Shown here: in pieces, positions 61,820 to 63,798 of the stretch
Layout: each line of letters starts with the position of its first letter
How positions within the stretch are numbered: the stretch's first letter is position 1
From: Escherichia phage KM01
Sequence record: PV018827
Reading direction: 5' to 3' (one strand)
DNA length: 64,000 nucleotides
Notes under the pieces: model-generated
Told to the model about the DNA's origin: nothing
What the model saw: only the letters and a program-made list of their open reading frames with translations
The model's database searches: none
Position numbers and translations under genes: made by a program

Positions 61820-62740
61820 AATATTCACCTTTCAATTGTAAGGGCGCTATTGCCCCGCTCTCTATGAGCTTGTTTAAGTCACTATTAACTTAACTATAAC
61901 CACTCGTTGTTAAGTAGTTATAGGTAAGCGGGGCGGTCTTATCAGGAGTTAACCTTGCCGCCCCCTTATCCGTGATGTTTCATCTGGTATCTTTAATTAG
62001 TCGCTATAAACGAAGCCGACCTGATAGCGATGATCAATCATCACAATAAGGCAGTGCGTCCGACTCTAATTAGTTACGTTATTGTAACCGTCGGCAATAT
62101 CGTTTACTTTGCTTTCGCTCTCGCCTATCCTTTTATATCAACTCTCAATCGCTAGTCATCGCCCACTACGGGATACTATTGCGAAAGAGTCATTGACCGT
62201 CTAATGTTCCGACGTTTTATATCTTTCGGCAAGTTTACTACATAAACCGACTATGTACTTTCATCATAAGATGAATCTCAAGCCGTTCACATTGTAAACG
62301 TTCACACTAAACCTTATTGTTAAATAGCAATTTGCCACTTTTTAACCACTCCCCGCCGCTCTCAATTGAGCGTTAATTCGTCGGGATTGCCTACCCTGAT
62401 TAACTTCTTTCACTGTAGCACCGTGTTAGCAATGACCGCCGCTACCCTTAACCGTGGGCGATTAGCTCAAGTCTTTGCGTGTACTCAATGAATCCGTTTA
62501 TCAATGGTGACGTTTCCAGTAAGGGAATGTAAAACTGTTTACCCTGATAATTTAGGGAGTTTTACGCCGTTTTATCTGGTATGCTTTCCGATGGTTATTA
62601 TCATCAAGCATATTCAACCGATATAGGAGAATGTTTAAATTATTAAAGAGCGGTAAATCTATCAGTGTGCTTTCTCACACTATGCAACTGTTAGCCGTTG
62701 TTACGCTTTTCACTGAAGCGATGATTTGCTTAGTGAGTGC

Positions 62741-62770
62741 TCATTATGAATCATGTTGTTTTCGCTGTCA
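62741..62770 (-). promoter_or_regulatory. sigma70-like promoter (minus strand), P_b
   Basis: TTGACA-gcgaaaacaacatgatt-CATAAT; near-identical spacer start (CGAAAACA) to the promoter at 63376-63404. Confidence 0.5.
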
Positions 62771-63375
62771 ACCGCTTTTTAATCTTTTTCGTCGTTCCCG
62801 CTATTGGGAGGATATATCAATCAGCTTTATTTGATTGAAGATTAAGCGGTGAGGCTTAACTTATGACTCATATTGTTAAAGAGCGTTTAGCCTTTTAAAG
62901 TGTCTGCTAATCACTGTCACATTGAAGGCTTACTGATTCATTAACAGGCCGCCTACACCTGAACTAATCGCTGCACTATGTGCCACCTTTCCCGCGATAC
63001 GTTGATTTGGGAACTAGTTAGCGATGTTTTGCTAACTTGTGGTTAGTATGGACTACTTTAACCACGTTTGCAACTCTTTTTATCATCTTCTTTTAATTCC
63101 TTTCCCTTATCTCGCGTGAATCTATGCGAAAGGGCAAGATGATAAGTCTGATTTGTCTTTCAGGGAATCTAGTGCGCTTTCAAGCATTAATCTTTTGAAA
63201 GTATCGAACAAATAAGGCTTATTGATATTGCTTATTGTCCGCCTGCGTCACGTATGAATCAGGAATCAATTCTACCGATTAACTGAGCGCCTTATAGTAA
63301 TGACGTCGCCGCCACCCGTAAGACAAATCATATTTTTAAAGAGCGGGATTTTTTAAGTCATCGCTGACTATGCTC

Positions 63376-63404
63376 ACTATATATCAGGCTGTTTTCGGTG
63401 TCAA
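63376..63404 (-). promoter_or_regulatory. sigma70-like promoter (minus strand), P_a
   Basis: Consensus -35 TTGACA, 17-nt spacer ccgaaaacagcctgata, -10 TATAGT; AAAGAGCGG-motif copy about 25 nt downstream. Confidence 0.55.
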
Positions 63405-63504
63405 TACTCTTTTTAAGAATATTTTCACTTTCTAGCCTGATTTTTAAAGAGCGGGGCAAGTTTCCTTGCCTTGTATGTTTTACATCGTACCCGATGAAAT
63501 GAAG

Positions 63505-63513
63505 TATACATTA
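63505..63513 (-). promoter_or_regulatory. TAATGTATA promoter-like motif (minus strand)
   Basis: Minus-strand TTGCATccctcactgatTAATGTATA about 45 nt upstream of a motif copy. Confidence 0.35.
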
Positions 63514-63684
63514 ATCAGTGAGGGATGCAATAGGGTAAAACAAAATATTTTAAACTTTTTCACTATAGGAAGGTAAAAGAGCGGGCGAACGTGATACATC
63601 ATAGGAAAAGGCTTGTAAAGCGATAACAAGCGGCCTATAACGCATCACAATGAGCTAAAAGGGAGTAAGGTATACAATCACCTT

Positions 63685-63712
63685 AGAAAAGAAAAAAGCC
63701 TCATAGCGAGGC
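63685..63712 (-). terminator. rho-independent terminator after the partial upstream gene
   Basis: GCCTC-gctat-GAGGC hairpin followed by TTTTTTCTTTT on the minus strand. Confidence 0.6.
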
Positions 63713-63798
63713 TTATAGGAAGGTTTTAAAGTATCAGATAAATTATGACCATAGGCATGACCACGGCACAATAAAGCAGAAATAGTAACCCTATGGAT

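Follow-up and report, generated by a model that had tools for sequence, protein, structure and literature searches.

The stretch analyzed here, hereafter the window, comprises 64,000 nucleotides of Escherichia phage KM01 (sequence record PV018827). It contains a gene-free spacer of about 1.9 kb, read leftward on the minus strand, between the end of an early gene (~63791) and the ATG of the gp124 homologue (61819). Analysis of this spacer identified repeated boxA elements that follow predicted promoters and a conserved structured leader RNA in front of gp124, and the arrangement is probably that of an rRNA-operon-like transcription unit. A sequence-only reading of the same DNA had reported no minus-strand open reading frame (ORF) of at least 60 amino acids (aa) in this interval, and this was confirmed, with the longest ORF being 49 aa and every minus-strand ORF between 61829 and 63121 being shorter than 25 aa. 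The spacer region is 98.9% identical to that of Escherichia phage SkaterBoy_Bas90 and is matched by approximately 97 further phages of E. coli and Shigella that belong to the phiEco32 group (Kuravirus, Suseptimavirus and Nieuwekanaalvirus). The phiEco32 equivalent is a region of ~1.94 kb without genes, located between genes 124 and 125 and ~2.8-4.8 kb from the right genome end. The KM01 spacer is therefore the already known gp125/gp124 gene-free stretch housing early sigma70 promoters, three of which were reported in the gp124-gp125 spacer of SU10, 'like phiEco32' (PMC4281155).

Two near-consensus leftward sigma70 promoters had been noted in the spacer, and both were recovered on the minus strand with 11 of 12 matches; for the second, the hexamers proved to be separated by 17 and not 16 nucleotides (nt), and its coordinates had been off by 1 nt. 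These promoters, designated P-up and P-down (Table 1), both contain CGAAAACA in their spacers and are kept in position among relatives, with P-down, in most of them, at -940 to -956 relative to the ATG of gp124. Their hexamers, spacing, conservation and location all fit early sigma70 promoters. Weak sigma70 matches (at least 9/12) were not enriched in the region (10 versus 9.1 in shuffled sequences). A promoter located between these two has decayed in the window and is intact in phiEco32, SU7, EK010 and other phages, in which TTGACA-16-TAGAAT is followed by a boxA at about +8 from the start.

The sequence-only reading had also described five same-orientation copies of a repeated motif. Four of these were borne out as exact copies of AAAGAGCGG (62645, 63338, 63446 and 63576, plus-strand reading), whereas the fifth, at 62878, is AAAGAGCGT, with one mismatch. 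The 9-mer AAAGAGCGG was observed four times against 0.38 expected, and none of 100 shuffled sequences reached four copies. Because transcription runs leftward, the motif must be read on the minus strand, on which the repeat is cGCUCUUUAAnAAU (motif form cGCTCTTTAAnAAT); transcription of the spacer is taken here from a literature summary, and the promoters are predicted. By its sequence on this strand the repeat is boxA, the NusB/NusE site of rRNA (rrn) operons and of lambda nut sites, which had been missed because the motif was read on the non-transcribed strand. In annotation generally, boxA-like repeats can be taken for operators if the wrong strand is read.

The exact boxA core, GCTCTTTAA, occurs four times in the window, always on the minus strand and always inside the spacer, and no other exact core was found in the rest of the window or in the remaining part of the Bas90 genome examined (L001). 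The flanks of the motif, which lay outside the search pattern, were analyzed in 96 copies from 23 related phages, representing 59 distinct contexts. Among the 59 distinct copies, AA at +10/+11 was conserved in 58-59, T at +12 in 51 and C at -1 in 50, and all four window copies have AA at +10/+11 and T at +12. The phage boxA and its flanks match both the rrn stretch UGCUCUUUAACAAUUUA and lambda nutL CGCUCUUAAAAAUUAA of PMC2724277, which prints the rrn boxA as UGCUCUUUA (followed by ACAAU) within CACugcucuuuaacaauuua, the lambda boxA as CGCUCUUA, and nutL as cgcucuuaaaaauuaa. In the copy nearest gp124 (copy 4), boxA plus spacer is identical to the rrn sequence of PMC2724277 at 15-16 of 16 positions; the window has GCTCTTTAATAATTTA here, whereas roughly half of the relatives have GCTCTTTAACAATTTA, which is identical at 16 of 16. 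A divergent relative (L164) carries ACTGCTCTTTAACAATTTA, with 19 of 19 positions identical to rrn. Copy 3, at 62872-62885, reads CGCTCTTTAACAAT.

The boxA copies are located promoter-proximally on the transcribed strand, downstream of the predicted sigma70 promoters. A largely alternating order of promoter and boxA recurs in about 40 related genomes, among them 30 distinct Kuravirus-like spacers and nine divergent relatives whose gp124 proteins are 47-70% identical. No reverse-strand boxA copies were found in the divergent relatives checked. In phiEco32, the order relative to the gp124 ATG is boxA (-1487); promoter (-1440) to boxA (-1378); promoter (-1108) to boxA (-1065); and promoter (-950) to boxA (-833). 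The window has the same layout, except for the decayed middle promoter and an extra site of a different type, 61 nt upstream of the first boxA. Relative to the predicted transcription starts, boxA begins at about +8, +26 and +84, and the number of modules among the phages varies from two to four, with the promoter-boxA pairing largely retained. In SU7-type phages (L004 4837-5037, SU7_114; L024 1069-1269; L026 1067-1267), the variable upstream portion of the spacer carries an annotated 66-aa ORF, which is located between one boxA and the promoter that follows it and is absent from the window.

The extra site is the TAATGTATA motif, which was found on the minus strand exactly where the sequence-only reading had placed it. 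It corresponds to the core of promoters for the phage sigma factor gp36, whose consensus is tAATGTAtA (PMC4281155, PMC12276001); middle/late promoters carry tAATGTATAtA for the phage sigma factor (PMC4281155). A gp36-dependent promoter was defined here by a tAATGTAtA element 6-8 nt upstream of the start. The site is found only in the window and in Bas90, KBNP1711, ECBP2 and IME267, and is absent at this position from phiEco32 and most relatives; its activity is predicted. Other exact TAATGTATA motifs in the window are located at 24280-24288 (minus strand), 24352-24360 (plus), 13558 (plus) and 31004 (minus). The pair at 24280 and 24352 faces outward, 72 nt apart, which fits a divergent middle/late promoter region.

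A small hairpin precedes each boxA in the window. At the position of copy 1, KBNP1711 has the hairpin GGCAA-GAAA-TTGCC. The predicted P-up transcript starts with GUCA-GCGA-UGAC, followed by 11 nt and boxA, and the same hairpin is UUCA-GCGA-UGAA in phiEco32, LAMP and 4E8, a compensatory change from G-C to U-A. In the module of copy 4, CAAC(GGCUAACA)GUUG is followed by a boxB-like AGUGUG-AGAAAG-CACACU, 11 nt and boxA. The hairpins of this module were paired in 150 of 150 cells over 15 distinct sequences, with compensatory changes in four of ten pairs and one pair occurring in four forms; none of 500 shuffled controls was as good, and controls slid along the alignment were 16-41% paired. Relatives whose leaders are 50-64% identical keep the layout of two hairpins and boxA, with stems that differ. 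The predicted hairpins fit the rrn-type arrangement, in which a boxB hairpin lies immediately 5' of boxA, and hairpin-before-boxA is the rrn order and not the lambda order.

The region between the last boxA and the gp124 start, ~820-830 nt in length, is highly conserved in blocks, with no codon-like period. The alignment of 21 distinct leader sequences (86% mean column identity) yielded, with RNAalifold, a consensus of 240 pairs in 41 helices. In this consensus 99.0% of cells were paired, versus 92.9% in shuffled alignments and 34-46% when the structure was slid by ±1-3 columns. The number of pairs changed on both sides was 77, versus 37.6±3.6 in shuffled alignments (0 of 500 reached 77) and 8-12 in slid controls, and the covariation score was 0.253, versus 0.130 and 0.035-0.060, respectively; 336 cells were changed on both sides yet still paired. 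There were 515 G-U cells and only 16 A-C or C-A cells, and therefore the fold exists only in the minus-strand transcript, not in duplex DNA or in the other strand. Seven hold-out sequences, which were outside the derivation of the structure, were 98.7-100% paired, and the window sequence alone folds nearly identically (-282.9 kcal/mol, z = -7.35). The earlier proposal of an early-promoter cluster making non-coding RNA was thus supported and sharpened, in that the promoters face a conserved RNA of ~0.85 kb with strand-specific covariation; the sequence-only reading had not recognized the seemingly empty DNA as structured RNA.

The leader consists of two closed domains, with a hairpin between them, and a series of 3' hairpins (Table 1). 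A GC-rich hairpin, previously placed at about 61922-61969, is real and is located at 61930-61964, where it corresponds to helices 36 and 37, with compensatory changes in five of seven pairs of helix 36; as a terminator it was ruled out, since it has no U-tract. The degenerate boxA-like UGCUAUUUAACAA (62320-62328) is probably not a working boxA, being partly paired, with UGCUAUUU in hairpin 19 and ACAA in helix 20. In phage LAMP (L010, columns ~546-640 of alignment A2), ~100 nt inside domain 2 are replaced by an unrelated longer sequence and the rest is kept, a variant that could show which parts of the leader are dispensable. The consensus fold leaves most boxA bases unpaired. Helix 4, with nine predicted pairs between 61823-61833 and 62648-62658 (columns 974-984 with 103-113 of A2), would connect the Shine-Dalgarno region of gp124 with the last boxA, three bases of which would be paired along with the upstream spacer. 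This helix showed no covariation and is broken in two phages, Bas88 and TH34. It would enclose the entire RNA, resembling the 16S precursor stem. A long-range 'anti-boxA' pairing of 61850-61864 with 63445-63459 was also considered and was rejected, because the CCCC flank of that copy is not conserved and the local hairpins 40 and 41 contain the 3' partner.

The same organization extends beyond the cultured phages. A gp124 protein search detected divergent homologues on contigs of uncultured phages, with identities of 67-70% and 47-49%; all of these contigs have 3-3.4 kb without called genes upstream of the homologue, with two or three exact boxA copies each, paired with sigma70 promoters. An nhmmer profile of the leader detected the divergent leaders with E values of 4e-109 to 4e-23 (three tested). 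When the Kuravirus-derived structure was placed on nine leaders 50-64% identical to that of the window, using a plain MAFFT alignment, 69.6% of pairs held, versus 36-44% in slid controls, and 440 of 648 cells changed on both sides still paired. The gene-free stretches upstream of the gp124 homologue span L164 1983-5000, L166 1955-5000, L167 1563-5000, L169 935-4000 and L171 897-4000; they hold 1.5-2 kb more gene-free DNA beyond the promoter/boxA array and are bordered by oppositely oriented genes (terminase in L166).

A search for leader homologues in complete E. coli genomes (5,426) and PLSDB plasmids found none. When metagenomes and the genomes of 185,579 bacterial species were scanned for the motifs, 116 matches were obtained, seven of which were real, all on Kuravirus-like metagenome contigs, the rest being chance matches. 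The leader RNA was thus found only in Kuravirus-like coliphages, which include phiEco32, SU10 and the BASEL phages Bas86, Bas88, Bas89, Bas90 and Bas94, and in their uncultured relatives. Among the genomes compared, gp124 and the structured leader always co-occur, gp124 being found only with the leader. Salmonella phage 7-11 has no gp124, and no boxA was found in its right-hand 20 kb; at its right end (L163 18865-19917), ~1.05 kb without an annotated gene lies between gp151 and the end, where two validated early promoters have been reported and no boxA is present. A cmscan of 60500-64000 on both strands against Rfam 15 (4227 families, E≤1) returned only a chance-level match to BtsR1 (E = 0.44; 21.6 bits, versus a gathering threshold of 66). 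The searchable literature, which did not include the primary phiEco32 mapping papers, contained nothing on a boxA or a structured RNA in these phages, nor on antitermination at this locus. Publications pairing phiEco32 with antitermination concerned gp79, a general review and Xp10 P7, and a paper retrieved for Kuravirus and small RNA (PMC12803456) proved to be unrelated.

Taken together, these results indicate that the spacer is probably an rRNA-operon-like transcription unit, in which a Nus-modified RNA polymerase would resist Rho while making a long untranslated RNA. In the proposed mechanism, two to four strong early promoters (sigma70, plus one of the gp36 type in KM01) would be read leftward, and each transcript would carry a small hairpin and then boxA, cGCUCUUUAAnAAU, within its first ~10-100 nt. 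Host NusB-NusE (S10) would bind boxA on the nascent RNA and, with NusA and NusG and probably SuhB/S4, would turn RNA polymerase Rho-resistant, so that it could cross 0.85-1.5 kb of untranslated RNA, otherwise an ideal Rho target. The modified polymerase may also aid folding of the RNA, long-range helices included; such aid by the Nus complex to long-range helix formation has been proposed for rRNA. The three-part leader of ~0.85 kb ends ~8 nt upstream of the gp124 Shine-Dalgarno sequence, and the unit would close at the terminator after gp124. The proposed Nus and Rho steps are based on the established behaviour of boxA in rrn operons and CRISPR leaders (PMC2724277, PMC7665894): boxA shields untranslated CRISPR-array transcripts from Rho (PMC7665894), and, according to the citation of Berg 1989 in PMC2724277, the rrn boxA plus spacer suffices against Rho-dependent terminators.

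The analysis itself establishes that the motif is boxA by sequence, its strand, position and conservation, the covariation of the hairpins and the structure of the RNA. Several observations weigh against the interpretation as a whole. Promoter activity in the KM01 genome is predicted, and Nus binding, the effect on Rho and the RNA's own role are what we infer from the analysis rather than what it demonstrates. The structure was predicted from the same alignment that was used for the pair counts, a circularity which the slid controls and hold-out sequences offset only partly. Helix 4, if real, would partly occlude boxA. Rrn-type antitermination reportedly acts mainly on Rho-dependent terminators and is not known to be efficient at intrinsic ones, and therefore would not by itself explain read-through of the strong intrinsic terminator after gp124. 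Furthermore, boxA of the suhB type represses expression, so that the sign of the boxA effect is uncertain. Finally, a conserved UGUGUGGG-like element, as expected for a GU-rich boxC, was not found in the 30 nt that follow each copy; for rrn antitermination, boxB and boxC are reportedly dispensable (PMC2724277).

Four alternative explanations were considered. The first, that boxA acts as in suhB, with bound Nus factors blocking translation or promoting Rho termination and thereby attenuating transcription into gp124, is unlikely. Nus factors at a boxA in the 5' untranslated region (UTR) reportedly repress E. coli suhB, and the predicted helix 4 would connect the Shine-Dalgarno sequence of gp124 with the region of the last boxA. 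That helix lacks covariation, and the last boxA lies ~820 nt from the gp124 start, with no overlap with the ribosome-binding site. The placing of one boxA per promoter, right where a long untranslated and structured RNA begins, is the arrangement of rrn and CRISPR leaders, and the layout suits the rrn case better than suhB-type repression.

It is quite improbable that the region is a replication origin, either classical or transcription-primed, with the leader RNA serving as an R-loop pre-primer like ColE1 RNA II or the T4 and T7 origin transcripts. Strong promoters, a long structured transcript and the absence of genes over a long stretch would be consistent with an origin, and transcript-primed origins occur in other phages and plasmids. 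The proposal of an origin in the sequence-only reading nevertheless was not supported, since none of the window's 24 DnaA-box-like sites (at most one mismatch) falls in the spacer, which also has no marked AT-rich unwinding block (maximum 72% A+T per 60 nt) and no GC-skew switch, the skew tracking gene orientation. There are no regularly spaced iterons either, the spacing of the repeats being irregular. This evidence covers the classical form, and the pre-primer variant is a possibility, although covariation over ~0.85 kb in closed domains suits a folded RNA better than a hybrid-forming primer.

The likelihood is slighter still that the motif is a DNA operator or iteron array through which a phage or host protein controls the early promoters, as the sequence-only reading had also proposed. 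The copies cluster near promoters, and in several modules two of them flank one promoter ~108-110 bp apart, or about ten helical turns, so that pairs of sites could loop the DNA. Against this, the motif is the boxA RNA consensus, even in flanking bases outside the search pattern; every copy in the window and in the divergent relatives checked points the same way as transcription; and the distance of the motif from the start varies (~+8, +26, +46 and +84), which is unsuited to operator geometry. It is also tied to RNA hairpins that covary with tolerance of G-U pairs, and the reverse partial matches CCGCTCT (plus strand, 61855 and 62357) fall within the local RNA helices 40 and 18, respectively. 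Least credible of all is a spacer filled with small unannotated coding genes, with conservation reflecting coding: ORFs of 21-25 codons do recur at alignment columns 144-209 and 352-424 in most relatives, and a 66-aa ORF is annotated further upstream, in the variable part, in some records, but the recurrent short ORFs start with TTG or GTG, span ~15% of the leader and overlap compensatory helices, and the remaining ORFs differ from phage to phage. On the RNA strand of the window there is nothing beyond TTG/GTG fragments of 21-25 codons, no more than 41 codons run without a stop over 1,550 nt of that strand, and substitutions track base-pairing (336 double-changed cells still paired, 99% paired).

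With the rRNA-operon-like reading preferred, the leader RNA could be a regulatory or stabilizing leader of gp124, a free RNA, or a partner of gp124. We suggest, tentatively and with somewhat less than even confidence, that it represents an undescribed class of large structured phage RNA, made in quantity early in infection via host boxA and Nus factors, with a function of its own beyond that of a passive 5' UTR; examples would be a trans-acting decoy, a host-takeover RNA, or an RNA partner of the co-inherited gp124. Large structured RNAs are rare, and most are without known function. The promoter cluster was already known; boxA and the leader RNA are new with respect to the searchable literature and Rfam 15, and the large RNA appears to be a new family. 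A long-known gene-free spacer of ~2 kb thereby becomes a defined transcription unit with clear predictions, and, if the interpretation is correct, rRNA-style antitermination extends to a virulent phage with its own boxA for each promoter. For the related phage 7-11, the antitermination strategy "remains to be defined" (PMC8948821). The large RNA, strongly supported by covariation, lies in tractable E. coli phages, where a known signal for host factors precedes it and a conserved partner gene adjoins it, and could be deleted, probed and imaged quickly.

The borders of the unit and the neighbouring genes were also examined. The terminator of the upstream gene, placed by the sequence-only reading at 63685-63712, is present on the minus strand at slightly shifted coordinates (63714-63696); it closes the early operon gp128-gp125 and is the upstream edge of the unit. 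The terminator directly after gp124 is probably the downstream edge of the unit formed by the leader and gp124. It is located ~53 nt ahead of the next early gene, with no strong promoter between them, and therefore the downstream early genes need some read-through of this terminator. The gp124 protein was matched to PHROG 13018, whose function is unknown; no Pfam family scored above the cut-off, and the AlphaFold model of the protein was too poor (pLDDT 64.7, pTM 0.39) for a fold search. The early gene upstream of the spacer (63791-64000 onward, minus strand), which encodes a protein of 121 aa, is called 'terminase' in Bas90, KBNP1711, IME267 and many other records. This label is doubtful because a 121-aa protein of the early region is unlikely to be a terminase, and it looks like a propagated misannotation. 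A scan for tRNA and tmRNA genes found only one tRNA-Arg (anticodon TCT, 54574-54649, minus strand), outside the spacer; a single tRNA is typical of the phiEco32-like group.

Table 1. Features of the gp125/gp124 spacer of KM01 and its borders, in window coordinates
Feature	Coordinates	Strand	Description
Intrinsic terminator	63696..63714	-	8-pair stem AAGCCTCGCTATGAGGCTT then T-run TTTTCTTTTC; SU10 equivalent annotated as terminator
Degenerate boxA-like copy CCGCTCTTTTA	63574..63584	-	one mismatch to the GCTCTTTAA core; only in some relatives
TAATGTATA, core of predicted promoter for phage sigma factor gp36 (middle/late)	63505..63513	-	61 nt upstream of hairpin and boxA
Hairpin and boxA copy 1 cCGCTCTTTAAAAAT	63440..63470	-	directly after hairpin GGCAAG-GAAA-CTTGCC; sequence
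Predicted early sigma70 promoter P-up, TTGACA-17-TATAGT	63376..63404	-	11/12 match; A/T-rich stretch upstream; predicted start ~63369
5'-terminal hairpin and boxA copy 2 cCGCTCTTTAAAAAT	63332..63368	-	at ~+26, after 5'-terminal hairpin GTCA-GCGA-TGAC and 11 nt; sequence
Decayed middle promoter GTGACA-17-TAAAAG, then boxA copy 3	62872..62920	-	read from sequence
boxA copy 3 aCGCTCTTTAACAAT	within 62872..62920	-	perfect consensus; sequence
Predicted early sigma70 promoter P-down, TTGACA-17-CATAAT	62743..62771	-	11/12 match; predicted start ~62736
Two hairpins and boxA copy 4 CGCUCUUUAAUAAUUUA	62640..62700	-	in rrn-style antiterminator module; sequence, covariation
Structured RNA domain 1, ~300 nt	62341..62639	-	closed by helix 5; helices 5-18 96-100% paired, many compensatory changes
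Hairpin 19 with degenerate boxA-like UGCUAUUUAACAA	62322..62340	-	8 pairs, 100% paired
Structured RNA domain 2, ~280 nt	62043..62320	-	closed by 10-pair helix 20; helices 24, 25 and 27 with 7, 6 and 5 compensatory pairs
Nine 3' hairpins (helices 33-41)	61841..62042	-	ending 8 nt before gp124 Shine-Dalgarno; consensus fold
gp124 homologue, 299 aa	60920..61819	-	first ORF after leader; Shine-Dalgarno ~61826-61833
Strong intrinsic terminator directly after gp124	60870..60897	-	12-pair stem and T-run; annotated in SU7 and 4E8

The spacer was compared with known systems. The E. coli rrn leader (boxB-boxA-boxC; NusA/B/E/G, S4, SuhB) likewise has tandem strong sigma70 promoters and a hairpin 5' of boxA; boxA plus spacer of the phages is identical over 15-19 nt to rrn CACUGCUCUUUAACAAUUUA, and in both cases a long untranslated, highly structured RNA follows, the 5' flank of which is predicted to pair with the 3' flank. 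The KM01 unit differs from rrn in being encoded by a virulent phage and in having one boxA per promoter (3-7 copies), versus one leader and one spacer copy in rrn. No boxC-like element was found in it, its RNA is unrelated to rRNA (no Rfam match), a protein gene directly follows, and its dependence on Nus factors is one that we infer.

Lambda nutL and nutR resemble the KM01 elements in that a phage early transcript carries a boxA (nutL CGCUCUUAAAAAUUAA, similar to the phage CGCUCUUUAAAAAU) beside a small hairpin with a purine-rich loop. The lambda nut sites are single-copy and have the order boxA-spacer-boxB, whereas KM01 has its hairpin ahead of boxA, and its boxA carries CUUUA, the rrn-type form, a tighter NusB-NusE binder than the lambda form. 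A 3' boxB with a GAAAA or GAAGA loop, as in lambda nut, was not found, the sequence 3' of the last boxA entering helix 5, and no N-like protein was identified, no search aimed at one having been made.

The boxA of CRISPR arrays (Stringer et al. 2020, PMC7665894) is similar in that it opens a long non-translated transcript and protects it from Rho. It differs in belonging to a host locus, in being single-copy, and in that the downstream RNA is a repeat array and not a single folded molecule.

As an RNA, the leader shares with the large structured RNAs GOLLD, ROOL, HEARO and OLE a length of >500 nt, many covarying helices, association with phages and an unknown function. Unlike these, it has no Rfam match, is the 5' leader of a conserved protein gene, lies behind boxA, and is restricted to Kuravirus-like phages and their uncultured relatives.

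Among virulent coliphages, T7 sets a precedent for a boxA behind clustered early promoters. It also has three strong early promoters for host polymerase (A1, A2 and A3) and a boxA-like sequence before gene 0.3; this boxA, CGCTCTTTAACAAT, is located at 812-825, 63 nt after the A3 start (750). The single T7 boxA follows the last promoter in a leader of ~175 nt without a large structured RNA, whereas KM01 has a boxA for each promoter and a structured leader of ~0.85 kb.

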